The translations under genes were made by a program, and so were the position numbers. Source: an uncultured Methylomirabilota bacterium (GTDB taxonomy: Bacteria > Methylomirabilota > Methylomirabilia > Methylomirabilales > 2-02-FULL-66-22). Taken from it: 64,000 bases of DNA. The stretch spans positions 5,408,001 through 5,472,000 of the forward strand of contig OY970067.1 of assembly GCA_963705305.1 (NCBI GenBank). The letters run 5' to 3'. Shown here piece after piece: positions 1,821 through 55,893 of the stretch (position 1 is the stretch's first letter; each line of letters begins with the position of its first letter). The notes under the pieces are model-generated. The model searched no databases. It was not told the DNA's origin and was given only the letters and a program-made list of their open reading frames with translations.

Positions 1821-2943
1821 TATGGGACGTTGTGGCCTAATTGTCCTAATAACTTCTCTCCAGTTCCCTCCACCTCTCCCCCGCCGCCTGCCCACGCCGG
1901 GCCGCCTTATGCACCGACGATAGTTGGATCCCGAGCCGCCGCGCGAGGGGGCCCGCCGACTGCCCGTACACCTCCAGCCAGATATACGCGATGCCTTCCC
2001 GCACGCGCGCCACCGCCCGGCGCCGGCCGCTCCCTTCGACACTGCCAGGGTGAAGCCCGAGACGCGCGCAGATCCGGGCGACAAGGGCCGGCAGGTCCGG
2101 GTGCCGAGCGGCCGCTTGTTCGCGGGCCTCTACGGCCCGCAAGATCCCTGCAACGAAGTCGCTCCCTCCGAGGATCCGCTCGTCTGCAGCGAATGCCTCC
2201 CGGCCCCGCCGCAAGGCGGTTACAGCCGCCCAGCCTCCGGCGCTACGCCGCAGGCCGCCCCCCTGGAGCTCCGGACGCCGGCCCTGCGCAATTCCATCCT
2301 CCACAAACCGCCGGTACCCCGATCGCGCGGCAGACGGGCGGGATCCAAACCGTTGGAGGACAGCGGTCGTTGCTTGCCAGGTCCGCTCCTGGTGTCCCAG
2401 CAATGCGCTGTGCCCAGACCACGGATAGCGGTGCAGGGCCGCGGCGTCGGCCACGACCCTCGCCCGGAGTGGGTTCAGGTGAATATACCGGACCAACTCA
2501 AGAAAATACGCCTCCTCCTCCACCACGATCGATTTGTACCGATTCTGAAAGAGGTGGCCGTGTCGGCGATGCCGGCGGTTGAACCCGCCGGCATACGCCG
2601 TTAGGAGGCGCCGCATCACTCGGGCCAAGGGTGTCGACCCTGTGCGAAGGAGCAGATGGGCGTGGTTCGGCAGGAGTGCCCATGCGTATGCCGTGACGTC
2701 ATGCTGCACGACGAGCCCAGCGACTCGGTCGAGGAACGCGGCACGATCGACCTCATCTCGGAAGAGGGCACGCCCCTCGATCCCGCGGACCATGACGTGG
2801 TGCAGCGTCCCGGGTGCGTCTAGTCGAGCTGCACGCGGCATAAGCGTCTCACCTCCCCCCTTCCGGCCAGCCTGCGGTCACAGTCTCGTAGTGATGCCGA
2901 GGTTGCTATCATCGATAGGACAATTAGGCCACAACGTCCCATA
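1821..2943 (-). mobile_element. RAYT-like HUH transposase element 1 with perfect 28-bp terminal inverted repeats
   Basis: TATGGGACGTTGTGGCCTAATTGTCCTA at 1821-1848 and its exact reverse complement at 2916-2943 enclose a single transposase gene. Confidence 0.85.
1846..2841 (-). CDS. REP-associated tyrosine transposase-like protein (Y1_Tnp) with C-terminal HTH (DnaA domain IV-like)
   Basis: MPR..RLDAPG.LHHV..RG start, HUH motif NHAH, GHLFQNRYKS, catalytic Tyr in RYIHLNP, C-terminal helical HTH. Confidence 0.9.
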   Translation of the reverse strand: MPRAARLDAPGTLHHVMVRGIEGRALFRDEVDRAAFLDRVAGLVVQHDVTAYAWALLPNHAHLLLRTGSTPLARVMRRLLTAYAGGFNRRHRRHGHLFQNRYKSIVVEEEAYFLELVRYIHLNPLRARVVADAAALHRYPWSGHSALLGHQERTWQATTAVLQRFGSRPSAARSGYRRFVEDGIAQGRRPELQGGGLRRSAGGWAAVTALRRGREAFAADERILGGSDFVAGILRAVEAREQAAARHPDLPALVARICARLGLHPGSVEGSGRRRAVARVREGIAYIWLEVYGQSAGPLARRLGIQLSSVHKAARRGQAAGERWRELERSY

Positions 2944-3051
2944 GGTGTATTGGCTTCTCTATCACATGTGGAGCTGGAGGAGCAAGCGGAGAATGCGAAG
3001 AGGTGGTCTCGGCCCCGTCGCCCGCCGCCACGCGGGCGAGGCCTGACCGAC

Positions 3052-5403
3052 TTACCGCCATTTCTTCAGCACCTGAAACAGATTGCTGTAGTCGTCGGTC
3101 CATACCCTGATCCGGCGGGCGGCCGGGTTCCTCGGCGTCGCCGCCTCGACAATGTCGGATGCCTCCAGCGCGCGGGGATCCCGCGACAGCAGCATCCACG
3201 TGCTGCTGCTCTTGGTGTCATCGTCATCCTCGTCTGTGTCAACGAGAACGCAGGCAAGCCCGAACCCGTCGGCCAGCGCCCACACCTCGCCGCTCAAATC
3301 GAGGTACCGGTTGGAAATGTGAACGGCGAGGATGCTCTCCGGCGCGCGTAGATGTCTAAGGTAGAGCTGTATCGCCTCGCGCGTCAGCAGGTGCACCGGA
3401 ATCGCATCGCTGCTGAACGCGTCGATGGCCAGCACGTCGAATCTCTGGGGGTCGCCGCGCGCCAGCTCGCGCTCCAGGGACAAACGGGCGTCGCCCAAGA
3501 CGACATCCACGGTGGCGGGACAGTCCCGGAGGTACGAGAAATAGTTGCGCGGCCCGAGCGACAGCCGAACCACATCCGGGTTGATCTCGTAGAACCGAAC
3601 GTAATCGCCCGGGCGCGCGTAGGCGGCGGTGATGCCGACGCCGAGGCCGACGATGCCGATCCGCAGGGGCTGCCTTCCGCGCCCGGCGGCGCCGGCGCGC
3701 GGACCATGCTGAAGGGCCAGCCCGATGCCGCTGTCCTCGCTGTAATATGCGGTCGGCAGCCGCCGCTTGTCCTCGGCCCGGAACTGGAACCCGTGCTCGA
3801 TCCGCCCATGGCGCAGCGCGTAGCGCTCCAGCTCCGGGTCGCCGCGATCCCGATCCTCCACGGTCAGCACGCCATAGAAGTTCCGCGACGCCTCGACCGC
3901 CCCTTCCAGCGTCGTGTTCACATCGGAGACCAGCACGCCTCCGAGAAAGGCCAGGCTGACTCCCAGGTATGCGGCAGCCAGGGCCGCCCGGCCGCGAACC
4001 GGGAACCTGGCTCGCAGCCAGGGAATCACGAGCACCAGCGCCGTCAGGACGGCAAGAACGAGGGGACCCGTCAGCCACAGGTGCCGGGCGTCCCGCAGCC
4101 ACCCCCCGGTCACATTCGGAAGGCCGCCCCCCAGCAGGTGGATCGCCAGGGCGTCCGCCCCCGCAAGCGCGAGCGCCGCCGGCCACAGACCGCCCTCCCG
4201 CAGCCAGGAGCGAGGGTCGCGCACCCACACCAGGACGGCCAGCAGGCAGGTCAGCCAGAGACTGACATGCACCTCCCAATAGCCGCGAAACAGCCGCGGG
4301 GCGATCAGGCCGACCGCGACGCCGCCCAGCGCGCCCCCCGTCGCGACCATCAAGTAGAAGGCGGTGAGGTGCCGCGGATCGGGTTTCAGCCGTACCAACT
4401 CCCCGTGACACACCATGCAGCCGGCAAACAGCACGAGGCAGTACGCCGCCACCTGGGTGACGATGCCGATGCCGACACCCCCGTAGAGGACGATTGAGGC
4501 GGCGCCGACGGCCAGCGCCAGCAACGGTCCGAAGACCCCGCGAGCATACCACCTCTCGTGGTCGAAGCAGATGACGAGGGAGATCAGATAGAGGGCCAAT
4601 GGAAGGATCCAGAGAAAGGGAATCGCGGCGACATCCTCGCACATCTGGTTGGTGACCGCCAGGAGCAGCATCGACGCGCAGGCGGCCAGGCTGACCCACA
4701 GCCAGTATAGACGCCGGGAGCCCGACACGCCGGCTCCCGCCGGTTCGGCCAGCGTCACCCCCTCCTGCCGCGCCCCTACGCCCGGCGGGGCCGGATCGAC
4801 CGCCGGCGCCAGATGGAGACACCAGGCGCACAGGATCGTGAATCCGACGTATCCCGCCCCCCAGACGATCGCCTGCTCCCTGAGCGTCAGAGCCGGCTCG
4901 ACCACGAACGGATAGCTCAGGAGCGCCAGCAATGATCCCAGATTCGACAGCGCATACAGGCGATACGGCGACACGCCCGGGCGCAGGCGACGGAACCATG
5001 TCTGGAGCACTGGACTGGTCGTCGACAGCAGAAAGTACGGCAGCCCGATCCCGACGGCGAGCAGGCCGAGGATGTGCGCGATCGGACTCGCCGACCCATC
5101 CGGCCTCCAGGAGGTCGGCGGAAGGATCGGCGATTGCCATGCGAAGAGCAGCAGCACGGCCAATGCCGTCGAGGCGAACAGGAGCCCCACCTGAACCCGG
5201 CGCTGCACGCGCGGGTCGAGGCGGCTGACCGTCCAGTGCGAATATGCATATCCGCCCAGCAGCAGCAGCTGGTAGAACAGCATGCAGGTCGTCCAGACCG
5301 CCGGCGCCCCGCCGAACCAGGGCAGGAGGTACTTCCCCATCAATGGCTGAACCTGGAAGAGCAGGAAGGCGGATAGGAAGATCGTGAGGGCGTAGAAGAT
5401 CAC
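3052..5403 (-). CDS. Fused multi-TM membrane / spermidine synthase-like SAM-binding protein
   Basis: Many TM segments, then IGIVGLGVG, YEINP, LGDAR, DAFSSDAIPVHLLT and WTDDYSNL. GTG start at 5403 is inferred. Confidence 0.85.
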   Translation of the reverse strand: MIFYALTIFLSAFLLFQVQPLMGKYLLPWFGGAPAVWTTCMLFYQLLLLGGYAYSHWTVSRLDPRVQRRVQVGLLFASTALAVLLLFAWQSPILPPTSWRPDGSASPIAHILGLLAVGIGLPYFLLSTTSPVLQTWFRRLRPGVSPYRLYALSNLGSLLALLSYPFVVEPALTLREQAIVWGAGYVGFTILCAWCLHLAPAVDPAPPGVGARQEGVTLAEPAGAGVSGSRRLYWLWVSLAACASMLLLAVTNQMCEDVAAIPFLWILPLALYLISLVICFDHERWYARGVFGPLLALAVGAASIVLYGGVGIGIVTQVAAYCLVLFAGCMVCHGELVRLKPDPRHLTAFYLMVATGGALGGVAVGLIAPRLFRGYWEVHVSLWLTCLLAVLVWVRDPRSWLREGGLWPAALALAGADALAIHLLGGGLPNVTGGWLRDARHLWLTGPLVLAVLTALVLVIPWLRARFPVRGRAALAAAYLGVSLAFLGGVLVSDVNTTLEGAVEASRNFYGVLTVEDRDRGDPELERYALRHGRIEHGFQFRAEDKRRLPTAYYSEDSGIGLALQHGPRAGAAGRGRQPLRIGIVGLGVGITAAYARPGDYVRFYEINPDVVRLSLGPRNYFSYLRDCPATVDVVLGDARLSLERELARGDPQRFDVLAIDAFSSDAIPVHLLTREAIQLYLRHLRAPESILAVHISNRYLDLSGEVWALADGFGLACVLVDTDEDDDDTKSSSTWMLLSRDPRALEASDIVEAATPRNPAARRIRVWTDDYSNLFQVLKKWR

Positions 5404-5659
5404 TGGCTTAACGGAAGCTCTGATCGACGAGCATATGATGATCGTGAAGAGAGCCGGTCCCGGAACCGGGGAGCCGCATGCGCACCTCGCGGCCGACCCC
5501 CAGGCCGGCCGGGCCAAAACGGCGGAAGGATACCGCAACCGGGGCTCGGGCTGTCAAGCCGAAGCCAGTCATGGATTGTCCGCTCGTACAACAGACCTTG
5601 ACCCGTAGATGTCGACAGACCCGCAAGGCGTGCCCCTCGAGACCCCACCCGACATGCGT

Positions 5660-5718
5660 GACCGAAGCGCCTGCGACCCCGTGATGGTCGTGGCCCGCGC
5701 AGATTCGAATCCGTTCAG
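5660..5718 (-). pseudogene. Possible N-terminal remnant of the FAD-binding subunit of the xanthine dehydrogenase-family enzyme
   Basis: Overlaps the Mo-subunit stop (CTGA in place of ATGA) after a G-rich RBS; reads (L)NGFESARATTI, similar to the usual MxxFEYxRxxT start of such subunits. Confidence 0.4.
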
Positions 5719-8033
5719 GACGTGCCCCCCTTCTTGGCCTCCGCCAAAGCGGCCAGCACCCGGTCCGGGGTCATCGGAAGCTGCCGGATGCGAACCCCCG
5801 TCGCGTTGAAGACGGCATTCGCGATGGCAGCCAGGGTGGGCACGAACACGGGCTCGGCGATGCCGGTCGCCGAAGTGTTGTTTCCCGCATTGGCCCCGTC
5901 GATCAAGAACGGCACGGCCTTGAACATGTCTGCCGCCCCGAGGATCTTGTAGGCCTCGAGGTTGGGATTCACCATGGTCCCCACGTTCCGGTCCAGGGTG
6001 CGCTGCTCGAGCAGGGCCCACGAGGCGCCCTGGATCTGGGCGCCGATGAGCTGGTGCTCCGCCGCCAGGGTGTTGATGGGGATCCCGCAGTTGATCGCGC
6101 CGACCATCTTGAGGACGCGGATCACGCCGGTTTCCACGTCCACCTCCACCTCTGCGAACTGCGTCGCGGCCAAGTCATCGCGGAAGCTCTCGAACTGCCG
6201 CTTGCGGTCCGCCAGGCAGCTGATCACCTCCCCCGGCATGTTTTGCGCCGCCGCGCGGAAGGCCACCTGCCGCTCCGGGTGGGCGGCCACGATGATCTTG
6301 CCGTCCACAAACTCGAGATCCTCCGGCTCGGCGTTCAGGAGGGGGGCGGCCAGAGCTGCGATCCGCATCCGGGCGTCGTGCGCCGCGAGGCGCACGGCGG
6401 GCCCCGAGGAGTTGGTCGTGGTGCTCCCGCCGGAGTTCCATCCCGGCGGGAAGCGCGTGTCGCCGACATGGACCGTCACGTCGGCGGGCCGGAGGCCCAG
6501 CTCCTCGGCCGCGATGATCGCCAGCACGGTCCGAAGGCCAGTCCCCAGGTCCTGGGCGCCATGGAACAGCTCGACGCTACCGTCCCGGTATACGTGCACC
6601 TCGGCCGCCACGGGCTCGTGGACCATGACATACCAGTTGCCGTTGGCCATCCCGATACCGCGCTTCCGGGGGCCGGGGGTGGCGCCCGGCGTCACGTTGC
6701 GGCGGTCCCAGCCGATGGCCTTGGCGCCGACGTCGTAATAGAATTTCCGGAACGGATGCGAGTCGTTCCTCCGTCGGAACTCCAGTGGATCCATCCCGAG
6801 GCGGTGCGCCAGCTCGTCCACGGCGCTCTCCAGTGCGAACGCCCCCTGCGGGTGGCCGGGCGCCCGAAGCGCGCAGGCCGGGCCCGCGTTCGTGAAGACG
6901 TCGTATTCCTCCAGCTTCACGTTGGCACAGCGCTGATAGATGTTGGCGGCAGGCCCGCCCATGCGGGAGGATCCGGCGATGCCGCCTTCCTCGTACGCGC
7001 GGAAGTGAATGGCGGTGAGGGTGCCGTCGGCCTTGGCGCCGAGCCGGACCGTGATGTGCGCGCCGGGGGCGTTGCCGGTGCAGAGCTGCTCTTCGCGGCG
7101 GCCGAGCATGAGCTTCACCGGCGCGCCCGCTGTCTTGGCGAGCCGGCAAGCGATTAGGGCAAACGCGCTCCCGACGGCCGAGGGGGACGATTTGCTTCCG
7201 AACCCGCCGCCCATGTGCTTGGTGATCACCCGAACGTTCTTCCGGGCGAGGCCGAACGCCTCGGCCAGGCCGGCCCGGACCTGAAAGACACCTTGTGTGG
7301 AGGCATAGACCGTCAGCCGGTCTCCCTCCCAGTGGGCGACGACCCCGTGCGTCTCGAGCGTGGCGTGGGTGTGGACGGCGAGGCGGTACGTGGCCTCGTG
7401 GACCGTCGCGGCCTCGGCAAACCCCTTCTCGATATCGCCCCGGCTCCCCCCACGGGTGGGCACGCTCGGCGGGGGCACGAACGGCCCGCTCACGTTCCCC
7501 CGGCGGGGGACATTCGACGGGCCGGCGGCCGGTGCCCCCGCGTACACGAGGGGCGCATTGGGGGCCATGGCCTCCTCGAGCGTGGTGACGAAGGGGGTCT
7601 CCTCATATTGCACCTCCACCAGGCGGGCCGCATCCTCCGCAATCTCTTGCGACACGGCGGCGACGGCCGCGATGTCCTGGCCCGCGAAGCGGACCATCCG
7701 CGCGTCCGTCTTCCACACCGCCTTCACGCCCGTGAGTCGCTCGGCCTTGGACGCCTCGATCCGCAGGATCTTGCCGGCGGGAATCGGCGCCCGGACCATG
7801 ACAGCCCACAGCATGCCCGGGAGCCGCACGTCATACGTGTACATGGCCCGACCGGTCACCTTCTGCGCCGCGTCCAGCCGGGGATGCCTCCCCTTCACGG
7901 TGCGGAGGCGGGAATCGTTATCCCAGGGCTGTAGGTCGTCCGGCGCCGGGTGGACCTCCAGGGTCACCGGGTCGTCGACGGGGCCGACCTTGACCTGAAA
8001 CGTGGGGCCGCTGGCGGAGTCCTGCTTGGCCAT
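5715..8033 (-). CDS. Xanthine dehydrogenase family molybdopterin-binding subunit (YagR/PaoC-like)
   Basis: 772 aa. KVTGRAMY..D, MGGGFGSK, ALRAPGHPQG, QDLGTG, TGIAEP, NAVFNATGVRIRQLP. Confidence 0.92.
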   Translation of the reverse strand: MAKQDSASGPTFQVKVGPVDDPVTLEVHPAPDDLQPWDNDSRLRTVKGRHPRLDAAQKVTGRAMYTYDVRLPGMLWAVMVRAPIPAGKILRIEASKAERLTGVKAVWKTDARMVRFAGQDIAAVAAVSQEIAEDAARLVEVQYEETPFVTTLEEAMAPNAPLVYAGAPAAGPSNVPRRGNVSGPFVPPPSVPTRGGSRGDIEKGFAEAATVHEATYRLAVHTHATLETHGVVAHWEGDRLTVYASTQGVFQVRAGLAEAFGLARKNVRVITKHMGGGFGSKSSPSAVGSAFALIACRLAKTAGAPVKLMLGRREEQLCTGNAPGAHITVRLGAKADGTLTAIHFRAYEEGGIAGSSRMGGPAANIYQRCANVKLEEYDVFTNAGPACALRAPGHPQGAFALESAVDELAHRLGMDPLEFRRRNDSHPFRKFYYDVGAKAIGWDRRNVTPGATPGPRKRGIGMANGNWYVMVHEPVAAEVHVYRDGSVELFHGAQDLGTGLRTVLAIIAAEELGLRPADVTVHVGDTRFPPGWNSGGSTTTNSSGPAVRLAAHDARMRIAALAAPLLNAEPEDLEFVDGKIIVAAHPERQVAFRAAAQNMPGEVISCLADRKRQFESFRDDLAATQFAEVEVDVETGVIRVLKMVGAINCGIPINTLAAEHQLIGAQIQGASWALLEQRTLDRNVGTMVNPNLEAYKILGAADMFKAVPFLIDGANAGNNTSATGIAEPVFVPTLAAIANAVFNATGVRIRQLPMTPDRVLAALAEAKKGGTS

Positions 8034-8036
8034 GGG

Positions 8037-8133
8037 TCACCCCTTCTGCTGGGCTGCTTTTGGAACGGCCTCGAAAATGCGGGCATACGTCCCGCCTGAG
8101 AAGCGCCGTGAAGGCCTCGACGAAGCCCGGTGT
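8037..8133 (-). pseudogene. C-terminal remnant of a (2Fe-2S) subunit gene
   Basis: - strand reads TPGFVEAFTALL, then in a shifted frame GTYARIFEAVPKAAQQKG*, ending 4 nt before the Mo-subunit ATG. The Cys ligands are missing. Confidence 0.55.
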
Positions 8134-8409
8134 AAAGTGCCACGCGAGGATTCCTCGGAACGTTCTTGCCGTCAGAAGGGTTCCCCATGCAGCACCTCGT
8201 GGCTCACGGCAGCGAACCGGGTTGGGTCTCTGCCGGTCCTGATATCTTCCCCTGGAAGAGCGCTCGAATTCTATGCCCGTTGACCCCCGAAAGTCAAAAT
8301 CGAAGGGGCAGCCCCGAGCTCCGGCCAGGCGGGAGCACGGCGGGTCATCCTGTGCTGCACCCGATGAGTGAGGCGCGCCGCAGGCCGCCCCAGAAGCGCG
8401 AGAAATTCC

Positions 8410-8668: not shown

Positions 8669-9685
8669 ATGATCATCGTCATGAAGGGCAGCGCGCAGGA
8701 AGAGGAGATCCAGCAGGTCATCCAGACGGTCGTGGAGCTGGGCTACCAGCCCCACGTGATTCGCGGCACGCAGCGAACCGTCATCGGCGCCGTCGGGGAC
8801 GAGCGCGGCAAGGCCCGCCTGCGCTCCATGGAGGCCCTCCCCGGGGTGGAGAGCGTGGTCCCCATCCTCCAACCCTTCAAGCTGGCGGGCCGGGAATTCA
8901 AGTCCACGTCCAGCGTGGTGAAGGTCCGGGACGCGGAAATCGGAGGCGACCGACTGGCGGTCATCGCCGGGCCGTGCAGCGTGGAGAACGAGGAGCAGCT
9001 CATCGAGGTCGCCCGGGCCGTCAAGGGGGCGGGTGCCACGTTGTTGCGGGGCGGCGCCTTCAAGCCCCGCACCTCCCCCTACGCGTTCCAGGGGCTCGGA
9101 GAGGAGGGCCTCCGGCTGCTGCGGGTCGCCCGCGAGGAGACCGGGCTCCCCGTCGTGACCGAGGTGCTGAGGACGGAGGACGTGGATCTGGTGGCCGAGA
9201 CCGCCGATATGATCCAGATCGGCGCCCGGAACGTGCAGAACTTCGCCCTGCTGAAACGGGCCGGCGAGGTGCGAAAGCCGGTCCTGCTCAAGCGCGGGAT
9301 GGCCACCACCATCCAGGAGTTCCTGATGGCGGCCGAGTACGTCCTCTCGGAGGGCAACTACAACGTCGTGCTTTGCGAGCGGGGCATCCGGACCTTCGAG
9401 ACGGCCACCCGCTTCACCCTGGACCTGAACGCCGTCCCGGTCATCAAGAAGCTCAGCCACCTGCCTATCATCGTGGACCCCAGCCACGGCACGGGCCACT
9501 GGGAATACGTGATCCCCATGGCCAAGGCCGGCATTGCCTGCGGGGCGGACGGGCTGATGATTGAGGTCCACGTGCGGCCCGAGATCGCGGTGAGCGACGG
9601 CGTCCAGTCGCTCAAGCCAGCGATGTTCCGCCAGCTGATCCAGGAGGTCGCGCCCTTCGCCCAAGCCGCGGGACGGAAGCTATAG
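8669..9685 (+). CDS. aroF: 3-deoxy-7-phosphoheptulonate (DAHP) synthase, type I-beta with N-terminal regulatory domain
   Basis: [38 protein letters not shown]. Confidence 0.95.
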
Positions 9686-9842
9686 CAGGCTGCTGAAAAA
9701 CCCGTTTTCGCTCAGGCTGCTCAAAAAGGCCCAGATGCAAGGCGCCGCGCGATCCGGGGCGCGAGGCGTACTTCGTGCGTACGTTGCAGCGCCGCGGGAG
9801 CGCGGCAACGCCGCAGATGGGACTTTTTCAGCAGCCTGCTAG
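9683..9842. mobile_element. MITE-like repeat, copy 1
   Basis: Perfect 18-bp TIR TAGCAGGCTGCTGAAAAA (9683-9700 / 9824-9841) plus an internal TIR-like copy at 9713-9727. Homologous to 23932-24111 in the opposite orientation. Confidence 0.8.
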
Positions 9843-40503: not shown

Positions 40504-40711
40504 CCGCAATGCCCCCGGGGTCGCCCTGACACGCTGGCCCCGCGGGGACGGTCGGGTCCGGTCGCCGCGGAGACTAAGGTCCCGACGTGATTCCCAGCAT
40601 TGCCCCACGGCGCGGCGTGCCCCATCCCCTCGGGGCAGCGCCGCCGGAGCAAGACCGTCCCGGCAACGTCGGAGGCCAGCAGTAGGAAGGGCGGCCCCGG
40701 GGGCATTGCGG
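40504..40711 (+). ncRNA. Unrecognised structured element, copy B
   Basis: 24-bp closing stem with one G-U; inner stems GCTGGCC/GGCCAGC and GGGACGGTC/GACCGTCCC; core shared with copy A. Confidence 0.6.
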
Positions 40712-44108: not shown

Positions 44109-44521
44109 CCATCGCATGCGCAGCCCGTGGCTCGATATTCCGTTGGCCGAGTACGAAGGGCACATGTCTTTGCCCGCCGTCGGGCAGGCAGAGATGCTTG
44201 CGGCCCAATTCGCCGAGTTGCTCGTCGAGTACTCTCCGCCATCCGTCGCCGTGATCGGGTGCGCCGGCGGCAACGGCTTTGATCGTATCTCCCCGGGAAG
44301 AACACGCCGCGTTGTCGGAGTCGACATCAACCCAGGCTACATTGAGGAAGCGTCACGCCGGTACGCGAGGAGCCTTCCGGGCTTGGAGCTTTACGTCGGC
44401 GACATTCAACAATCCGGTCTGTCCTGTGAGCCGGTCGATCTCATCTACGCCGCCCTGGTGTTCGAATACATCGAGCCGGAGCCGAGCTTTCAGGCCCTCA
44501 AGTCCCTTTGCAAACCGAACG
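44109..44521 (+). repeat. 413-bp direct repeat, copy 1 (truncated methyltransferase, ATG 44116)
   Basis: Matches 47024-47436 by inspection; identity ends 7 bp before the transposase TIR. Confidence 0.9.
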
Positions 44522-44528
44522 TGGTTAA

Positions 44529-45620
44529 GGGACGCTGGTAAGAAAATAAATATACACTTGGTGTATGTTGTGGTATAGAGAGACGTATGCCTAGATTGGC
44601 TCGTCTTGACGCGCCCGGTGCTTTGCACCACATCATAATCCGGGGGATAGATCGTCGGAAGATATTCCTGAGCGGGAAGGATTACGAAGACTTTCTGGAG
44701 CGTCTCGCAAGTCTTCTTCCGGAGACGAAAACTGCGTGCTATGCGTGGGCCTTATTACCGAACCACGCCCACCTTCTCCTTTGCTCGGGGGCGGTCCCAC
44801 TTGCCCGCCTGATGAGCAGGCTGCTTACCGGCTATGCGGTCGGTTTCAACCGCCGGTACAAGCGCCATGGGCATCTCTTCCAGAATCGGTACAAGTCGAT
44901 CATCTGTCAGGAAGATGTCTATCTGAGAGAATTGGTTCGCTATATTCACTTGAACCACCTCAGGGCCCGCATAGTCGCTGACGTTGCTGAACTGAATGGC
45001 TATTCCTATACCGGCCACAGCGCATTGATGGGGAGGGCGGACAGGCCGTGGCAGGACGCGGGGTACGTGCTTAAGTATTTTGGGGAAACGGTTCGAAGGG
45101 CGAGAAAGGCCTACCTTGCGCATCTCGAGGAAGGAATTGAGCAAGGGCGGCGAGAGGACTTGACGGGCGGTGGATTGATACGGAGTCTTGGGGGGTGGTC
45201 GGAGGCAAAGAAACTCGGAGGCAAGGGAAGAGATCACGTCATGAGCGACGAACGTATTCTGGGGGATACGGACTTTGTGGATTCAGTGCTTTCCCGGGCA
45301 GGAGAAGCATGTGAGCGGCGATATGAGCTGAAGCGACGTGGGTATGATTTGGAACGGATTGCCGGGAGGGTGGCGGAAATCTGTGGTATGGAAGAGAATG
45401 AGGTGTTTTCAAAGGGACGTCAGAAGGAAAAAGTGAGGGCCAGGAGCCTTCTCTGTTATTGGGCGGCCGGCGAGGCGGGGATATCGCTCAGGGCCTTGGC
45501 GAAACGATTGGGGATCAGCGCTCCAGGGGTTGGGTACGCGGTTGCAAGAGGAGAGGCCATGGTCCGGGAGAATCGCTTTGAGTTGATCCAGTGATTTAAT
45601 TACTTTCTTACGAGCGTCCC
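44529..45620 (+). mobile_element. RAYT-like HUH transposase element 2 with 21-bp imperfect TIRs
   Basis: GGGACGCTGGTAAGAAAATAA (44529-44549) versus the reverse complement of 45600-45620, 2 mismatches; lower GC than the host. Confidence 0.75.
44587..45594 (+). CDS. REP-associated tyrosine transposase-like protein with C-terminal HTH
   Basis: NHAH, GHLFQNRYKS, RYIHLN. Confidence 0.9.
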   Translation: MPRLARLDAPGALHHIIIRGIDRRKIFLSGKDYEDFLERLASLLPETKTACYAWALLPNHAHLLLCSGAVPLARLMSRLLTGYAVGFNRRYKRHGHLFQNRYKSIICQEDVYLRELVRYIHLNHLRARIVADVAELNGYSYTGHSALMGRADRPWQDAGYVLKYFGETVRRARKAYLAHLEEGIEQGRREDLTGGGLIRSLGGWSEAKKLGGKGRDHVMSDERILGDTDFVDSVLSRAGEACERRYELKRRGYDLERIAGRVAEICGMEENEVFSKGRQKEKVRARSLLCYWAAGEAGISLRALAKRLGISAPGVGYAVARGEAMVRENRFELIQ

Positions 45621-45657
45621 CTTTTTTCTACATCGAAAGGGAAAGCGAGGGAGAGTC

Positions 45658-45738
45658 ATGGCAAAAGGTAAGGGCGTCCAGAAGAGAGAGACCAGGAAGC
45701 CGAAGAAGGGCACGGCCAAGGGCAGCAAGAAGAAGTAG
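45658..45738 (+). CDS. 26-aa Lys-rich peptide MAKGKGVQKRETRKPKKGTAKGSKKK
   Basis: GAGGGAG RBS, ATG to TAG, followed by attC2. Confidence 0.55.
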   Translation: MAKGKGVQKRETRKPKKGTAKGSKKK

Positions 45739-45769
45739 GCCCAACTTGCTCCGATGGGCGGACGCCGTC

Positions 45770-45862
45770 GCCGAACTAGCGGTTGCACCGGAGTCGGCGC
45801 ACACAGATGCTCATTCCCCGTCCGGTGCCGTCGCGCCGGCCCGGTGAACCTTCTCGTTGGGC
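45770..45862 (+). other. attC site 2
   Basis: GCCGAAC-5nt-GTTGCACC...GGTGAAC-6nt-GTTGGGC. Confidence 0.82.
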
Positions 45863-45918
45863 CCCGTCGTTGAGCTCCATCACCTATTTTCAGTTGAATC
45901 AGTTGGAGGGATTTTCTC

Positions 45919-46125
45919 ATGACTGAAACCATGCCCGACAACACCTGCCCAAAATGTGGGGGCGAGCTACACCAAACAGACAAGAACACATTCACGGGGG
46001 AAGTGTGGCGGGAGTACACCTGCCGCTCCTGTGGGCATGTTTTGGATGTCAATGAGGGCATAGCACTCTGGCAGGTTCTCCACAATTATGCAGAGAACGC
46101 AAAGCAGGAAAAAGATAAGAAATGA
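45919..46125 (+). CDS. Small zinc-ribbon protein (cassette gene)
   Basis: CPKC...CRSC, GGAGG RBS. Confidence 0.75.
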   Translation: MTETMPDNTCPKCGGELHQTDKNTFTGEVWREYTCRSCGHVLDVNEGIALWQVLHNYAENAKQEKDKK

Positions 46126-46556
46126 GAACGTCTCCGCCTCACCCTTCGTTCAACTCGGACTCAACAGCCACGGACAGATCTCGCCTTCGCACATCCTACC
46201 CGAGCGAGCATGGACTCGTTTTGTTCCCGGATGCCTCAATCAAGACCAGGTCGATACCTTGGTGCTTTCCGGCAACCAACGGATTTGGGGTCATTGCCTA
46301 CAACGTAAACATACCCATCACCGATCCGGGCACCCTCTCACTGGCGCCGTCCGACATCAGGCCGGCCACACAGTTTGCCGCCGTGAGCATCGATGGGACG
46401 TGCGCGGGCAACAATACGGGCAAGACGTTTCTCCGCCTCGGATATGGCACACAGTGGTCAATGGCCGTCGAGCCCGGCAACTACTGTCTTACCCTGGGTA
46501 AGGCGGCGAATCATGCGGAGGGTGTGTGGTTTACCCTGACCGCGACCCGACCGTGA
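46122..46556 (+). CDS. Hypothetical ORF, possibly a fragment
   Basis: Open frame whose 5' end overlaps a degenerate attC half (GCCTCACCCTTCGTTCAACTCGG). Confidence 0.35.
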   Translation: MRTSPPHPSFNSDSTATDRSRLRTSYPSEHGLVLFPDASIKTRSIPWCFPATNGFGVIAYNVNIPITDPGTLSLAPSDIRPATQFAAVSIDGTCAGNNTGKTFLRLGYGTQWSMAVEPGNYCLTLGKAANHAEGVWFTLTATRP

Positions 46557-46578
46557 TCTGTGGATCTGGGACGCAGGC

Positions 46579-46662
46579 GCCCAACGAGGCGTTTCATCCG
46601 GCATCTCTGCCGACGCCGCTTTCCCCCTCCGGGGGAGCCACGGGTGAACTTGTGCATCATGG
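46579..46662 (+). other. Degenerate attC site 3
   Basis: GCCCAAC-5nt-GTTTCATCC...GGGTGAAC; R' GTT lost. GCCCAAC is the exact complement of the attC2 R' GTTGGGC. Confidence 0.6.
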
Positions 46663-46679
46663 CATCAAGGGGACATCCC

Positions 46680-47018
46680 GTGCAGTACCTGCTGATCATC
46701 TGCCACGATGACGCCTTCACTCCGACGGAGACTCTGGTGAAGGAGATCCGCGACTGGATCACGACCATGGGAGGGCGGGGAATCTGGGTGTACGGTAACC
46801 CGCTGCGACCGCCCGGCGATGCCACGACCGTGCGAGTGCGCGAAGGCAAGCTGGTGCTCACTCCTGGGCCATTCACCGAGTCCAGAGAACACATGTGCGC
46901 GTACGAGCTGATAGAATGCGCAAGCCCCGAAGAGGCCATTGAGGTGGCGTCCCGGCATCCTATGGCAAAGGCGGCCACGATCGAGGTGCGGCCGATTTGG
47001 CGAGAATTGGCCGGCTGA
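46680..47018 (+). CDS. YciI family protein
   Basis: L.P...ATTVRVR.G.....GPFTES.E, IEVRP. Confidence 0.88.
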   Translation: MQYLLIICHDDAFTPTETLVKEIRDWITTMGGRGIWVYGNPLRPPGDATTVRVREGKLVLTPGPFTESREHMCAYELIECASPEEAIEVASRHPMAKAATIEVRPIWRELAG

Positions 47019-47030
47019 GGGACCCATCGC

Positions 47031-47705
47031 ATGCGCAGCCCGTGGCTCGATATTCCGTTGGCCGAGTACGAAGGGCACATGTCTTTGCCCGCCGTCGGGC
47101 AGGCAGAGATGCTTGCGGCCCAATTCGCCGAGTTGCTCGTCGAGTACTCTCCGCCATCCGTCGCCGTGATCGGGTGCGCCGGCGGCAACGGCTTTGATCG
47201 TATCTCCCCGGGAAGAACACGCCGCGTTGTCGGAGTCGACATCAACCCAGGCTACATTGAGGAAGCGTCACGCCGGTACGCGAGGAGCCTTCCGGGCTTG
47301 GAGCTTTACGTCGGCGACATTCAACAATCCGGTCTGTCCTGTGAGCCGGTCGATCTCATCTACGCCGCCCTGGTGTTCGAATACATCGAGCCGGAGCCGA
47401 GCTTTCAGGCCCTCAAGTCCCTTTGCAAACCGAACGGAATTCTGGCCACCGTGCTTCAGTTGCCCTCCCAATCAGTCGCGGCGGTGTCGCCTTCACCTTT
47501 CACCAGCCTTCAGGCGCTCGGTCCGGTCATGCGCCTCATATCGCCAGGCACCCTAAACGCCCAGGCGGAGCAGGCTGGGTTTGTGCTATTGTCATCCCGC
47601 CAGGTTGCCTTGCCTTCGCACAAGGAGTTCGCGGTGCAGGTGTTCCAGCTACCAACGGCGAACCCTTCGCCCCACGGGACGTTCCGACAAGCGGCGCGTC
47701 CCTGA
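47031..47705 (+). CDS. Class I SAM-dependent methyltransferase (complete copy)
   Basis: VIGCAGGNG, GVDIN, DLIYAALVFEY; reads through attC4. Confidence 0.85.
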   Translation: MRSPWLDIPLAEYEGHMSLPAVGQAEMLAAQFAELLVEYSPPSVAVIGCAGGNGFDRISPGRTRRVVGVDINPGYIEEASRRYARSLPGLELYVGDIQQSGLSCEPVDLIYAALVFEYIEPEPSFQALKSLCKPNGILATVLQLPSQSVAAVSPSPFTSLQALGPVMRLISPGTLNAQAEQAGFVLLSSRQVALPSHKEFAVQVFQLPTANPSPHGTFRQAARP

Positions 47706-49959: not shown

Positions 49960-49972
49960 GCAGGGTGCCACC

Positions 49973-51022: not shown

Positions 51023-51069
51023 CAAAGACGCGCGGCCGACGACAGCGGCACAACGCGGGGAGGCACGTG

Positions 51070-51293
51070 GATATGGCTTGCATGACGGCCCCCTTGACGA
51101 AGAGCGCGCTCTTGCAAGCGCGGTCAACATGACGGACCCGCGTGGCGTGTATCCGCTTCGCGCGGCCACCGAATTCGGTCAGGCAGGGGTTGCAGGAATC
51201 CTCCTGGGACTTGGGGCGGATGCGTCGCCCGACGGCGAGATATTTCCGACATGGGGCCGACTGCCGAGCCACCCGACTCCGGCTTCCAGCTGA
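51070..51293 (+). pseudogene. Ankyrin-repeat fragment
   Basis: VN..D.RG.YPL..A..FG...VA.ILL..GAD, a single repeat. Confidence 0.45.
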
Positions 51294-51453
51294 CGACGCC
51301 CTCGCTTTGCCCAGGCTATCGTAGCCGAAACCTGGTACAATGCGTTCGCGCTCGCTCGGAGCGTAGGGGCCGTTCCATCACGGCGCCGCCCGCTCGGCCC
51401 CCGATCGTTGGCCGCCTGGGCATCCAAACGGAAGCGAGGCAGAGAGGTTCTGA

Positions 51454-52224
51454 ATGGGGCCCAATCTGAGGATCGGGATCATTGGCGATTTCGACCCATC
51501 ATCTGTCCCTCACACGGCGACGAATGCCTCTCTTGACCACGCGGCCTCCTCTCTGGGCCTGTCCCTTGATGTCTCGTGGGTGCCGACGCCCAGCCTGGCG
51601 GACAGGCCGGCGTCCACCCTCGCGGCATTCGACGGCCTCTGGTGCTCGCCCGCCAGCCCGTACAGGAGCATGGACGGCGCGCTCGCGGGAATCCGATTCG
51701 CCCGGGAGCACGGGTGGCCCTATTTCGCCACCTGAGGCGGGTTCCAACATACTCTGGTAGAGTATGCCCGCAATGTTCTCGGCATGGAGGAAGCGGACCA
51801 CGAGGAATCGTCGCCCCAGGCGGCCACGTTGCTGATCAGCCGATTGGAGTGCTCCATCGCCGGGCAGGCCCAGACCGTTCGACTGGCGCCCGGCACCATA
51901 ACCGGACGGGCCTACGGGCGGACGGAGTCCCGGGAGGAGTTCCGGTGCAACTTCGGCCTGAACCCGAATTACCGGGAGCAGGTTTTGAGCGCGCCCCTCC
52001 GGGTTGTCGGCGTCGATGCCGCCGACGAGGTGCGGGCCGTCGAGCTGGACCGCCATCCGTTTTTCGTGGCCACGCTGTACTTGCCGCAGCTCTCGTCGAC
52101 GCCCGCAGCGCCCCACACGCTGGTGGTGGCCTTCCTGCGGGCCGCCGGTGCTTTTCGCGACGCACGGGACGGCCGCCGGCCCATCGAGCATCCCGGCGCG
52201 GCGCCAGAGCGGGCCGGTGGGTAG
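51454..52224 (+). CDS. CTP synthase C-terminal (GATase)-like selenoprotein, Sec UGA at 51733-51735
   Basis: PASPYRSMDGAL, PYFAT-UGA-GGFQH at the nucleophile position, EYARNV, HPFFVATLY.PQ; SECIS-like hairpin 51748-51766. Confidence 0.85.
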
Positions 52225-52341
52225 GCGGCTCTGCACTGCGCGCTCACCGGGCGCTCCACTCCGCCCGGCCTGGGGGGTTCGGCCGTGCGCAAGTGTTGTC
52301 CGGATGCATCCCTGGGGCACTGGCCGAGACGCCGGATACGC

Positions 52342-53061
52342 ATGACGCAACCGATGCTCGCCTTGCTGCCATTATTCCTTGTTCCCGCACTGTGCGCCTG
52401 CACCGCGAGGAACGTGGCCGCCCCGGCTGCGTTCCAGGGGCCGGCCCAGACGGTGTACCTCCCCGCCGCCGGCCGGGGGCCGATCGTCGTGGTGATCTCC
52501 GGCCACTCGGGGCCACACCTGTATCAAGACTTCAGCGCCAACGTGGCCCAGCTCGGCTACCTCACCGTCCTCATCAACGGCAACGACATCCTCAGCCGGC
52601 ACCAGGACGGCGCCCTGAATCTCCGGACGGTGATCGCCCGCGCCCAGGCCTCGCCCCACGCCGTGCCCGGCAAAGCCGCCGTGATCGGTCTCTCCCAGGG
52701 CGGGGGCGGCGCGCTGGCCCATGCCGCCGCCATGCCCGAGCTTGTGTCGGCCGTCATCGCGTACTACCCGCAGACCAATTGGTGGAGCGACATGCGGCTG
52801 CTGGCAGAACGCTTCCGGGTTCCCGTCCTCGTGCTGGCCGGCGTCCGCGACCGATACCACAACTGCTGCCTGATCGAATCGATGCGCCGGCTCGAAGCGG
52901 CGGCCCGAGAGCGCCAGGTGCCGTTCCAACTCGTCGAATACCCCCACGCAGGCCACGGCTTCAACCTGGCGGTGTCTGGCTATCGGAGCGAGGACGCCGC
53001 GGACGCGTGGCGCCGAACGACCGAGATGCTCGCCCGGTACCAGCCGCTGGGTGAGGGGTAA
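52342..53061 (+). CDS. Dienelactone hydrolase family lipoprotein
   Basis: GLSQGG nucleophile elbow, YPHAGHGF, DAWRRT. Confidence 0.85.
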   Translation: MTQPMLALLPLFLVPALCACTARNVAAPAAFQGPAQTVYLPAAGRGPIVVVISGHSGPHLYQDFSANVAQLGYLTVLINGNDILSRHQDGALNLRTVIARAQASPHAVPGKAAVIGLSQGGGGALAHAAAMPELVSAVIAYYPQTNWWSDMRLLAERFRVPVLVLAGVRDRYHNCCLIESMRRLEAAARERQVPFQLVEYPHAGHGFNLAVSGYRSEDAADAWRRTTEMLARYQPLGEG

Positions 53062-53242
53062 GCTCCTCGTGGCCGACGCAGACTTGAAATTCTTGCCCCT
53101 TCAGGCCGGGGCGCGGAGGGCGCCTTCCACTCCAGGCAGTCGCACTCGGGCCTCCCACCGCCGGCGGCCCGCGCCATTGCCGTCCGCCGGCACGGTTGCG
53201 CCGCGTGAAGACCGAGTGGCGGTTGGTCAAGGGAGACACCCC

Positions 53243-53302
53243 GTGCAGTTCCTCCTGATCATCTGCCACGATGACGCCTTTTGGAACGAACTGGCCGGCT
53301 GA
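53243..53302 (+). pseudogene. Internally deleted yciI homolog (19 codons)
   Basis: RBS plus VQFLLIICHDDAF fused in frame to WNELAG*, i.e. both ends of the gene at 46680-47018. Confidence 0.8.
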
Positions 53303-53408
53303 CGGAGCATGTGGCGGCTTCGGCCGATACCCGTTGTGCGATTCGGTGCATTCCCGGACGCGCGCGATGGGCCCGCACGCCGGCGAATTCACAAGGCGGG
53401 CCGAAACA

Positions 53409-53756
53409 TTGAGCGTCATCCCTGCATTCGCTAAGACACCCAAGCCACCGTACTACGCTGTGATCTTTTCCTCGCAGCGCACCGAAGGTGACAACGGGTA
53501 CGCCAAGATGGCCGGACGAATGGTTGAACTCGCAGCCCGCCAGCCCGGCTTTCTCGGCGTTGAAAGCGTCAGAGGAGCCGATGGCTTCGGCATCACGGTC
53601 TCATACTGGGCATCCGTCGAGGCCATCGCCCACTGGAAGGCCGATGTCGAACACCTCGCCGCCCAGGAGATGGGGAGGCGGGCGTGGTATGCGCACTACG
53701 AGCTCCGGGTGGCAAAGGTGGAGCGCGCATACGCCAAGCCGCCGGCCGAACCATGA
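53409..53756 (+). CDS. Antibiotic biosynthesis monooxygenase family protein
   Basis: PPYYAVIFSS, QPGFLGVES, GITVSYW, H..AQ..G...WY. Confidence 0.88.
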   Translation: MSVIPAFAKTPKPPYYAVIFSSQRTEGDNGYAKMAGRMVELAARQPGFLGVESVRGADGFGITVSYWASVEAIAHWKADVEHLAAQEMGRRAWYAHYELRVAKVERAYAKPPAEP

Positions 53757-53963
53757 ATGTCGGCCGCCTGCCGTCGCGTGTTTGAAAGCCGTTCCCGCCG
53801 ATGGTAGTGTCCTGCCGCCAACCGGCTGCGGCACCGCCGTACGCTCTTCCGCGCGGGGCCAGGCGGCCGCCGGGCGGCTGTTTCGGAATAGTGCCCGTCG
53901 GATGAACGGTCCGTGGCGATGCGTGCGCCCATCTGTGCGGGAGAGGACTGCGGGGACGGGATC

Positions 53964-54758
53964 ATGCCGACGGAACAGGACCTGGCGCGCGCCTACGCAC
54001 TCCTCGAGGAGGATCCCCTTCGAAACGTAGTGACTCTCAAGATGCTCAATAGCCACTCGCAGGACATGAGCATTCGTCTCTTACAGGAGGGGCACGACTG
54101 GGCCCTGCTGTCGCTCCTCCCGGTTTCCGTTTCCGAGTGGGATCGCAAGACCTATCCGGATGCCAACCTCGCAGTTTTCATCGATGGGAGCAACACCGAG
54201 CTCATGGGCATCCTCTTCGACACCATTCCAAAGACAACGGTTGTGATAAAGACGGGCGACGGCTTCCTCAAACAGCGAATCGCCCGACAGCCGCACGCAA
54301 CCAGGACGACGGCGTACCTCTCCTTCACGACAGAACGCACATCTGGGAGTCGGATCCCGCATCCTGCGGTACGGCAGTCCGATGCGTACGATGAACGCGC
54401 GTGGCAGCTTTTCTTGAGGAACGGATACGGGCCGGACGAGTTGAGCCGCCATTTCCAGAATGGGGCCCGGTGGTTCAGCATCGATCGGGGCGGATCCCGG
54501 GTCGCGGTGTGCCTTGTCTTCCAGAACTACAAGCAGATCTGGGAAATAGCCGGCGTTCATACAGAGCCGGAGTTCCGAGGGCAAGGCCTTGCGCGAAGCG
54601 TCGTCTTGTCCGCCCTCGCGTATCTCGAGGTGAGAGGCCTCGTTCCGAGATATCAAGCCAGATGGAACAATCACGGTTCGATCCGTCTCGCCGAATCGTG
54701 CGGCCTTTCCGAGTTCCTCCGGGTCGACCATTTCCTCCTGCGCCCGGCTGAGCCCTAG
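53964..54758 (+). CDS. GNAT family N-acetyltransferase
   Basis: V.T.PEFRGQGLA, N..S.RLAE.CG. Confidence 0.82.
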   Translation: MPTEQDLARAYALLEEDPLRNVVTLKMLNSHSQDMSIRLLQEGHDWALLSLLPVSVSEWDRKTYPDANLAVFIDGSNTELMGILFDTIPKTTVVIKTGDGFLKQRIARQPHATRTTAYLSFTTERTSGSRIPHPAVRQSDAYDERAWQLFLRNGYGPDELSRHFQNGARWFSIDRGGSRVAVCLVFQNYKQIWEIAGVHTEPEFRGQGLARSVVLSALAYLEVRGLVPRYQARWNNHGSIRLAESCGLSEFLRVDHFLLRPAEP

Positions 54759-54773
54759 GCGGCACTCTCACCG

Positions 54774-55893
54774 CTAGGGGACGTAGTAGACTTAATAGAC
54801 TTATTCCGTTGACCCGGCCTTCGCCATCAGTTACGCTCCACTGATGCCGCGCGGCCCACGCTTGGATGCCCCTGGGGCCCTGCACCACGTGATGGCCCGG
54901 GGAATCGAGAAAACACTGCTCTTCCGGACCGACGAGGACCGGCGCGACTTTGTCCATCGGTTGGCCGCACAGGTGGAGGCTGGAGGCGCGCACTTGCTCG
55001 CCTGGGCCCTGCTCCCCACCCACTTCCACCTCCTCCTGCGAACGGGTCCTCGCCCACTGGCCGCCCTGATGCGCCGCTTGCTTACCGGCTATGCGGCGGC
55101 CTTCAACCGGCGCCACCATCGTCATGGCCACCTGTTCCAGAATCGCTACCGATCAATCGTCGTGGAGGAGGAGCCGTACCTCCTCGAACTGGTCCGCTAC
55201 CTCCACCTCAATCCTCTGCGGGCAATGTGTGTACCCGACCTGCCTGCCCTTGAGCGCTACCCTTGGAGCGGCCACAGCGCCCTCCTTGGACGGGTCACCC
55301 GCCCCTGGCAGGCGATTGAAGAGGTCCTGAGATACTTTGGCCCAACCCCGCGTACCGCGCAGCAACGCTACGCCCAGTTCGTCGCATCGGGTGTCGCCCG
55401 GGGGCGCCGCCCCGAACTGCAGGGGGGCGGCCTCCGCCGGAGCGCCGGCGGCTGGACTGCCCTTGCAGCTCTGCGTCGTGGTCGGGAGCTTTGGAGCTTC
55501 GACGAGCGGGTCCTCGGCACCGGCCCCTTCGTGGAGCACCTCCTCACGGAAGCTGGCCGAGCCATCCAGGTCCCTTCGGCGACTGCCGCTTGGCAGGCGC
55601 TGCCACGCATCACTCAACGCGTTGCAGCCGTTTTTCAGGTCGCCGTGGGCGAACTCACCGGTGGGAGCCGCCGCCGAGAGGTGGCCAACGCACGCGCCGC
55701 GGCCGGGGCCGTGGCGGTCAGGCACCTCGGCCTGCCCGTCTCCCGGGTGGCCGCGGCTTTCGGGGTCACCAGCATGGCAATCCTCCGCGGTATCGACCGC
55801 GGTTTGGCCGCCCTTCAGGAACACGGCGTTGGTCTGGATCAGCTGGTAAAGGAAGGGCTACAATAAGTCTATTAAGTCTACTACGTCCCCTAG
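54774..55893 (+). mobile_element. RAYT-like HUH transposase element 3 with perfect 32-bp TIRs
   Basis: CTAGGGGACGTAGTAGACTTAATAGACTTATT (54774-54805) and its exact reverse complement at 55862-55893. Confidence 0.85.
54844..55866 (+). CDS. REP-associated tyrosine transposase-like protein with C-terminal HTH
   Basis: THFH, GHLFQNRYRS, RYLHLNP. Confidence 0.9.
   Translation: MPRGPRLDAPGALHHVMARGIEKTLLFRTDEDRRDFVHRLAAQVEAGGAHLLAWALLPTHFHLLLRTGPRPLAALMRRLLTGYAAAFNRRHHRHGHLFQNRYRSIVVEEEPYLLELVRYLHLNPLRAMCVPDLPALERYPWSGHSALLGRVTRPWQAIEEVLRYFGPTPRTAQQRYAQFVASGVARGRRPELQGGGLRRSAGGWTALAALRRGRELWSFDERVLGTGPFVEHLLTEAGRAIQVPSATAAWQALPRITQRVAAVFQVAVGELTGGSRRREVANARAAAGAVAVRHLGLPVSRVAAAFGVTSMAILRGIDRGLAALQEHGVGLDQLVKEGLQ

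Follow-up and report, generated by a model that had tools for sequence, protein, structure and literature searches.

How does a transposase of the Y1 HUH type recognize its DNA when its gene is bounded by terminal inverted repeats (TIRs) and not by hairpins? This question is raised by a stretch of 64,000 nucleotides (the window; C1:5408001-5472000, contig OY970067.1) in the 5.65-Mb single-contig genome (G000, 66.1% G+C) of an uncultured Methylomirabilota bacterium, in which three divergent transposase genes each lie between TIRs of their own. Genes that resemble those of the REP-associated tyrosine transposases (RAYTs; REP, repetitive extragenic palindromic) and are flanked by TIRs have been named TIRtrons, and their proteins TIRYT (Di Nocera, De Gregorio, Rocco 2013, BMC Genomics 14:522, PMC3733652). 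We conclude, with a probability of about 0.8, that elements 1, 2 and 3 of the window (Table 1) are TIRtrons, that is, transposons of ~1.1 kb with a single gene, which encodes a two-domain TIRYT, and with bipartite ends.

The ends themselves carry much of the argument. Nine inverted-repeat pairs were found in the window, and the best two of these nine are the TIRs of element 3 (32 nt, 100% identity) and of element 1 (28 nt, 100% identity). The hexamer GGGACG (the “box”) is present in all six ends of the three elements, at 1824, 2935, 44529, 45615, 54778 and 55884, and reads TA-N-GGGACG from the outside in five of them; the right end of element 2, AAG-GGGACG, is the exception. Inward of the box, element 1 carries the tandem 9-mers TGGCCTAAT (1833-1841) and then TGTCCTAAT (1842-1850), and element 3 carries TAGACTTAA (54787-54795) and then TAGACTTAT (54796-54804); in both elements the stop codon of the transposase gene lies inside a TIR arm. 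A first-pass annotation, made from the letters of the window alone, had reported the three elements, their TIR lengths (28 nt perfect, 21 nt with 2 mismatches and 32 nt perfect), the six ends, the 9-mers and the stop codons, and all of these are as it described them. GGGACG as such is not enriched in the window (86 observed, 85.7 expected). For a longer box, GGGGACGTTG, the genome has 61+62 occurrences, where ~12 per strand would be expected. The signal is positional and is carried by the longer box.

A protein search of the host genome returned 13 full-length paralogues, 51-64% identical to the element 1 protein, and ~10 fragments. TIRs built on one plan flank all 13: a short tip, GGGGACG, 3 nt (mostly TTG) and tandem 8-9-mers of the element's own, with one degenerate box each in E03 and E07. 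The inner part of the TIR is the same at the two ends of an element and different between elements; the 13 paralogues have a common box but fall into 12 sets by their repeats, and no repeats are shared among the subfamilies that coexist here. De novo clustering of the sequence that follows every GGGACG of the genome gave 136 ends in ~15 subfamilies. Solo ends make up 114 of the 136, and BLAST with full elements showed them to be mostly discrete modules of 26-32 nt, not decayed genes. Elements 1 and 3 each have seven end copies in the genome; element 2 has its own two, and a search for solo copies of these gave none there. When solo ends were sorted by replichore, with origin and terminus placed roughly by GC skew, no replication-strand bias was seen (41:35 and 20:18). 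One orphan end subfamily, TAACCTTAATTACC / GGGACGTTGTAACCTTAATTACCTT, occupies ~20 sites of the genome (e.g., 4322289, 4325345 and 4384428), which holds no full-length gene cognate to it. Another repeat family, with 27 sites and starting GGGACGTAGGGGACTTCGGCCCAGGCCCGGAT, is G+C-rich and not TIRtron-like.

The same plan recurs in other genomes. The family was present in 18/18 relatives of the genus first sampled, mostly in multiple copies, and the best cross-genome identity to the element 1 protein is only 62-63%. A phmmer search with the element 3 protein against 1.84 billion representatives returned 1,121 clusters (50% identity) at E <= 1e-30. Scanning the contigs of other genomes gave 79 loci, mostly in Desulfobacterota; other hosts of homologues are Nitrospirae, a Methylomirabilia metagenome-assembled genome (MAG; 62% identity), Chlorobium, Cytophagales and a Geoglobus MAG. 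An unanchored search detected an inverted repeat at 67 of the 78 testable loci. An anchored test, in which GGGAC had to stand at both ends and at least 18/26 positions had to match, was passed at 71/90 loci (62/79 in other genomes and 9/11 of our own). The two own loci that failed are L003, whose left box is degenerate (GGACG), and L004, whose open reading frame (ORF) start was misassigned; a start-motif filter had excluded L005 and L007 from the test. Across phyla, the GGGAC(G) box is kept, and the 3 nt that follow it and the inner repeats change. The idea of a TIR-bounded Y1 class with a common end plan, also put forward in the first-pass annotation, is upheld by the paralogues of the host and by most of the homologous loci.

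Inward of the box, the ends are organized as tandem direct repeats. A repeat with a period of 7-9 was found in 58/70 ends (period 8 in 35, 9 in 17 and 7 in 6), and the mean tandem-repeat score was 3.33, against 1.21 +/- 0.17 for shuffles. Hairpin folding was not seen when 34-nt ends were folded (mean z +0.41; z below -2 in 1/70). On these two grounds, the folding score and the tandem direct repeats, we rejected REP-like hairpin ends. A strict sigma-70-like site that reads into the gene lies on or beside the repeats at 14/70 upstream ends and at 0/70 downstream ends (none of them in the host genome), and TTGAC occurs at 20/70 gene-upstream ends compared with 5/70 downstream. These promoter-like sites at upstream ends suggest autoregulation in some members.

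The proteins of the three elements (331, 335 and 340 aa) are 50-54% identical to that of element 1. Pfam Y1_Tnp matches above its cut-off in two of the three, and the third scores 22.4 against a cut-off of 23. H60, H62, Q99, N100 and R101 are invariant in an alignment of 60 sequences, and the HUH motif (HxH) and the QNRY tyrosine region are conserved. An AlphaFold (AF2) model of the element 3 protein, built from the 60-sequence alignment, has a predicted local distance difference test score (pLDDT) of 87.4. The best fold match of the model in the PDB is Escherichia coli TnpA_REP (4er8; template-modelling (TM) score 0.72 by target), which corresponds to the N-domain; the ISDra2, IS608 and IS200 transposases follow at ranks 2-19. 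The C-domain matches the DNA-binding domain of DnaA (3pvp_B, TM 0.64; 1j1v_A, TM 0.66), and the family profile, run against PDB sequences, finds DnaA domain IV at E=3.3e-4. R284, the sole invariant residue of the C-domain, is aligned with the conserved Arg of the DnaA ARxxAMYL helix. By profile and modelled fold, the C-terminal domain is predicted to be DnaA-domain-IV-like, with a helix-turn-helix (HTH). No 9-mer matching the DnaA box TTATCCACA was found in the ends examined, and the repeats vary between subfamilies. The nuclease and the HTH are connected by a strongly conserved linker, GGGL.RS.GGW ... DERILG..F (residues ~187-230 of the element 3 protein), and model confidence is low at residues 195-218.

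The relation between the repeats and the two protein domains was assessed in 70 elements by Mantel and partial Mantel tests. Repeat distance correlated with C-domain distance at r=0.62 and with N-domain distance at r=0.50. The correlation with the C-domain given the N-domain was r=0.42 (p=0.0005), compared with r=0.07 (p=0.08) in the reverse case. The per-column association was also highest in the C-domain (entropy-matched median z 5.9 vs 3.7 and 3.35), and positions 310, 311 and 315, which belong to the predicted recognition helix, are among the top-associated columns. These tests support a stronger covariation of the repeats with the C-domain than with the nuclease domain. The first-pass annotation had proposed that a DnaA-like HTH reads the element-specific 9-mers. 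The domain is borne out by profile and fold, and the covariation fits the proposal; the reading itself is what we infer.

We propose the following mechanism. A TIRYT combines a RAYT-type Y1 HUH single-strand nuclease with a C-terminal DnaA-domain-IV-like HTH, and the end on which it would act is bipartite, made up of a tip (mostly TAG), the GGGGACG box, a 3-nt spacer and two tandem, subfamily-specific repeats of 8-9 bp. In keeping with the covariation, each subunit of a dimer may bind one of the two repeats through its HTH, in double-stranded form. The bound HTH would then position the HUH/Tyr site to cut within the box or directly behind it, GGGGACG^T. The inverted arrangement of the ends puts the boxes of an element on opposite strands, whereas in IS608 both cuts are on one strand. 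This would be the logic of a Rep origin, with a conserved nick site beside specific iterons, unlike the recognition of hairpins by IS608 or by REP/RAYT systems. A conserved nick site beside specificity-setting tandem repeats is found at rolling-circle Rep origins (the iterons of geminiviruses and circoviruses, and the Rep-binding element (RBE) and terminal resolution site (trs) of adeno-associated virus) and in IS91/ISCR. We draw the comparison as an analogy only, for the nick site, the tandem repeats and a possible one-ended mobilization of adjacent DNA, and claim no membership: the Rep and IS91/ISCR enzymes belong to other HUH subfamilies, and several of these systems recognize their iterons through the HUH domain itself or through other domains instead of a DnaA-IV-like HTH.

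The proposed nick is placed on two grounds, the invariant box and the points at which small duplications at the ends stop. A tandem duplication of the box with 5-7 nt of flank, just outside the end, was found at 9/136 ends and at 68/6807 of the remaining GGGACG occurrences (odds ratio 7, p=1.7e-5), and seven of the nine terminate right after GGGAC(G). In a looser count, a second GGGAC lay within 30 nt at 15/136 ends against 5.1% (p=0.006). From both features we infer that the GGGACG box is probably the cleavage site. Two origins are possible for the duplications: staggered cuts that are then repaired, or slippage where protein blocks a fork. The bases outside the box are less constant: of the 136 ends, 86 have T at -3, 90 have A at -2 and 102 have G at -1, and whole end subfamilies read TGG or TCC in place of TA-N. 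A TA target duplication as the rule was rejected on these frequencies and subfamilies, and it is preferable to count the tip bases with the end and not with the target.

How much of this was known? The first-pass annotation had put forward an element class of its own, with the remark that inverted repeats next to HTH-bearing RAYTs may already be described in part. The class is not new: TIRtrons were named in 2013 (PMC3733652) and tied to DnaA/HTH tails in 2018 (Quentin, Siguier, Chandler, Fichant 2018, PMC6006769). The 2013 paper, in the part available, describes a GGGGWSAS motif in some TIRs, TIR copies as singles, dimers and groups, and several TIRYTs with different TIRs in one genome. Our elements agree with that account in having a RAYT-like Y1 gene with HUH and Tyr motifs, closely flanked by TIRs and not by REPs, in their GGGG-headed TIRs, in the dispersal of TIR copies as solo ends, arrays and miniature inverted-repeat transposable elements (MITEs), and in the presence of several TIRYTs with different TIRs in a single genome. 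They differ in that GGGGACG(T/C), with ends GGGGACGT or GGGGACGC, fits the first six letters of GGGGWSAS and not the last two, and in that one genome holds 13 paralogues; the available 2013 text does not describe a split into a conserved box and tandem 8-9-mers. The 2018 paper, in the part available, equates TIRYT with TnpA_REP subclass 2.1, reports a C-terminal domain like Bac_DnaA_C, HTH_23 or HTH_28 in that subclass, notes that the GGGG motif is unlike a DnaA box and leaves the role of the domain open. By the features described there, our proteins would belong with subclass 2.1 (2.1.2), being long Y1 proteins with a DnaA/HTH-like C-terminal domain and no REP nearby; what differs here is that covariation offers a candidate target for the HTH, the tandem repeats that adjoin the box. 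No RAYT group to which the elements could be mapped was found in the available part of Bertels et al. 2017 (PMC5581495), and a literature search (TIRYT; tyrosine transposases with TIR, HUH and HTH since 2018) found no experimental study of TIRYTs. The class itself is known; to it the present analysis adds a division of the ends into box and repeats that holds across phyla, repeats that covary with the HTH, the end duplications and a 413-bp rearrangement at element 2.

Two other known systems can be compared with the class. Classical RAYT/REP(IN) systems (E. coli TnpA_REP, 4er8) share with the TIRtrons the fold of the N-domain, one gene type per repeat family and dispersed short non-autonomous repeats. 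The TIRtrons differ from them in having no GTAG-tagged hairpins, in the extra HTH and in scoring below the NCBIfam cut-off; a classical RAYT is typically single-copy and vertically inherited, whereas the genes described here are multiple and patchy in the genus. The IS200/IS605 transposases (TnpA of IS608 and ISDra2) share the HUH/Y1 fold. They act on subterminal hairpins on one strand, have no TIRs and are ~130-150 aa long without an HTH, compared with the TIRs and the proteins of 331-340 aa with an HTH seen here.

That the elements have been mobile in this lineage is supported by an identical pair, by MITEs and by more than 100 solo ends. E08 (480996-482078) and E09 (502026-503108) match at 100% identity along 1083 bp, although their flanks are unrelated. 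A ~230-bp MITE is present in the host genome in three copies with different flanks (3156914-3157125, 4911109-4911320 and 4919455-4919665); its two ends differ slightly, GGGACGTTGCATTATCTGTC and GGGACGTAGCATTATTTGTATAATC, and several copies carry terminal tandem duplications of 13-20 nt. The TIR subfamily of element 1 occurs in 0/20 other genomes of the genus and thus in the host only, and that of element 3 occurs in 5/20. Element 2 has a G+C content of 54.7%, compared with 66.1% for the genome. The first-pass annotation had suggested that the elements could be mobile with a TA target; of this, mobility is supported, whereas TA, in view of the TGG and TCC subfamilies, is not an obligate target.

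Several results weigh against reading the window elements as TIRtrons that move by the mechanism proposed above. A search for empty sites in 20 genomes of the genus gave none, and there the DNA of the element 3 region matched only transposase paralogues; the nitrilase-like gene to the right of element 3 and the methyltransferase gene to the left of element 2 have no orthologue in 20/20 of these genomes. A genome-wide search for paralogous empty sites, covering 123 elements and ends, gave a single filled/empty candidate, which differs by an 82-nt indel and not by a clean unit. No joint at element ends was detected in two public DNA runs, which are of low depth, contain under 0.2 of the sequence words and gave contigs of only 86-382 nt. 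The anchored TIR test failed at 19/90 loci, and a consensus scan found no sigma-70-like promoter in the three window elements. For the protein, the C-terminal matches to Bac_DnaA_C and HTH_23 are weak and under the Pfam cut-offs, and the best NCBIfam family, REP_Tyr_transpos, scores 52.2-64.2 bits, under its cut-off of 80. The covariation is confounded by shared descent: many columns of the N-domain score high too, several of them near the top, and the C-domain is simply more variable (mean p-distance 0.70 vs 0.36). Last, all but one of the 13 paralogues are single-copy, with 51-64% identity to the element 1 protein, which would suit old residents as well, as opposed to transposons that are active now.

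Table 1. Features of the three window elements and of the repeat beside element 2 (positions in the window; arms and boxes as named in the text).
Feature	Position	Strand	Remarks
Element 1 (E01), TIRtron	1821..2943	-	1123 bp, single ORF; perfect 28-nt TIRs; Pfam Y1_Tnp
TIRYT gene of element 1	1846..2841	-	331 aa; HUH (HAH), predicted catalytic Tyr (QNRYKS), C-terminal HTH
Element 1, 3'-side end	1821..1850	+	tip TAT, box GGGACG (1824-1829), TTG, 9-mers; contains stop codon
Element 1, 5'-side (gene-upstream) TIR arm	2916..2943	-	box 2935-2940
Element 2 (E13), TIRtron	44526..45623	+	54.7% G+C
TIRYT gene of element 2	44587..45594	+	335 aa; Y1_Tnp E=2.5e-9; HTH_23 and Bac_DnaA_C below cut-off
Element 2, left TIR arm	44529..44549	+	GGGACGCTGGTAAGAAAATAA
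Element 2, right TIR arm	45600..45620	-	21 nt; 2 mismatches vs left arm
Element 3 (E11), TIRtron	54774..55893	+	1120 bp; perfect 32-nt TIRs
TIRYT gene of element 3	54844..55866	+	340 aa; modelled RAYT-like N-domain and DnaA-domain-IV-like C-domain
Element 3, left TIR	54774..54805	+	tip CTAG, box GGGACG (54778-54783), TAG, 9-mers
Element 3, right TIR	55862..55893	-	contains stop codon of the gene
413-bp perfect direct repeat, copy 1	44109..44521	+	ends at outer tip of element 2 left TIR
413-bp perfect direct repeat, copy 2	47024..47436	+	runs into intact S-adenosylmethionine (SAM) methyltransferase gene (47031-47705)

The window also holds two inverted repeats that are unrelated to TIRtrons, one of 24 nt and 96% identity with arms 160 nt apart (40504-40527 / 40688-40711) and one perfect repeat of 18 nt whose arms are separated by 123 nt (9683-9700 / 9824-9841).

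The single-copy, diverged paralogues are also what one would see in a domesticated REP/RAYT-like system, in which the genes are immobile and each paralogue maintains short repeats of its own, either in the service of the host or as inherited replicators like REPINs. Each paralogue does have its own repeat family, of 2-20 copies, the solo ends are discrete modules of ~30 nt and not random remnants of deletions, and TnpA_REP is the best fold match of the N-domain. The ends, however, are non-palindromic, the subfamilies are patchy in the genus (0/20 and 5/20 genomes) and the closest protein of another genome is only 62-63% identical to that of element 1. Nor would immobile genes account for the identical pair E08/E09 at two loci, the foreign G+C of element 2 or the genes beside elements 2 and 3, which were not found in the 20 other genomes. 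We consider domestication unlikely. Still less can be said for an invertible switch, also named in the first-pass annotation, in which the enzyme would invert the segment between its own TIRs. Its appeal is one of geometry only, inverted repeats around the gene of a DNA-cleaving enzyme; the solo ends, MITEs and duplicated elements speak of dispersal and not of switching, and inversion of DNA is not known for any Y1 HUH enzyme. We regard this as very improbable.

The surroundings of element 2 and the arrays of solo ends bear on a different alternative, a one-ended mobilizer that works in a rolling-circle-like manner: a single end would start strand transfer, which would stop at the next box in the same orientation and so move the adjacent DNA, building cassette-like arrays and carrying passenger genes as IS91/ISCR or integron cassettes do. 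A REARRANGEMENT is seen at element 2, where the 413-bp repeat brackets the element and four small ORFs: a basic ORF of 26 aa, a zinc ribbon, an ORF of no assigned family and a YCII protein. The bracketed block (44526-47023, 2.5 kb) is low in G+C, with 54.7% in the element and 59.2% in the following 1.4 kb against 61-65% in the flanks, and at its right edge stands ...GAGGGAC, oriented like the left TIR. There are two possibilities for this arrangement. It looks like a recent insertion of element 2 together with passenger DNA and a long target duplication, or it may be the result of a copy-paste of 413 bp. Of the 1.4 kb to the right of element 2, nothing but the small basic ORF had a match in 251 genomes of the phylum, and no donor of the block was found. 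Three relatives of the genus carry this lysine-rich ORF (45659-45739), which has a conserved leader, at 75-85% DNA identity; its contexts there are unrelated, and in one case it adjoins a copy of the 230-bp MITE.

Arrays of solo ends in one orientation, with two subfamilies alternating, lie at 4320769-4340097 and 4383166-4392690 of the host genome (L113-L115); one of the two is the orphan subfamily TAACCTTAATTACC. Toxin-antitoxin pairs stand between the ends (PemK/MazF twice, DUF5615 three times, once beside DUF433, and PIN with a ribbon-helix-helix (RHH) protein). Such arrays fit either an accumulation of ends in a tolerant island or a one-ended mobilization of cassettes. An ORF at the edge of one array (L113:10950-11999) encodes a TOTE conflict-system archaeo-eukaryotic primase domain (E=1.6e-96). 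One-ended mobilization would be in keeping with the same-orientation arrays and the genes between their ends, with the direct orientation of 29/43 pairs of neighbouring solo ends (<3 kb), with the low-G+C block of element 2, its extra ORFs, its edge and the bracketing repeat, and with one paralogous segment that stops exactly at the tip of a solo end. On the other side, array genes are found in both orientations; a segmental duplication makes up part of one array, and the pairs therefore do not count as independent; GGGAC at the edge of a block is a single case; and the small ORF to the right of element 2 is found in other contexts in relatives. As an alternative to TIRtrons that move as units, the one-ended mobilizer seems doubtful to us. 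A broader version joins the two: the ends would be origin-like bipartite sites, a nick box with iterons read by a re-used DnaA-domain-IV HTH, at which one end is enough, serving both the movement of the element itself and one-ended mobilization of its neighbours. This we put forward tentatively, as possible though not probable; if true, it would explain the arrays with their toxin-antitoxin cassettes, the element 2 block with a 413-bp target duplication and the duplications that end at the box.

With the three elements taken as TIRtrons, what the locus offers is mainly a question of specificity; apart from that question, they are, as a feature of this genome, an ordinary mobile-element family. 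TIRYTs form a large family, and the host genome, with its 13 paralogues and 12 repeat sets, is a natural specificity panel for it. If the proposed division of labour between box and repeats is true, TIRYTs would show that Y1 transposases have a second way of recognizing their ends, in addition to the reading of hairpins, and would provide a set of orthogonal nicking modules.

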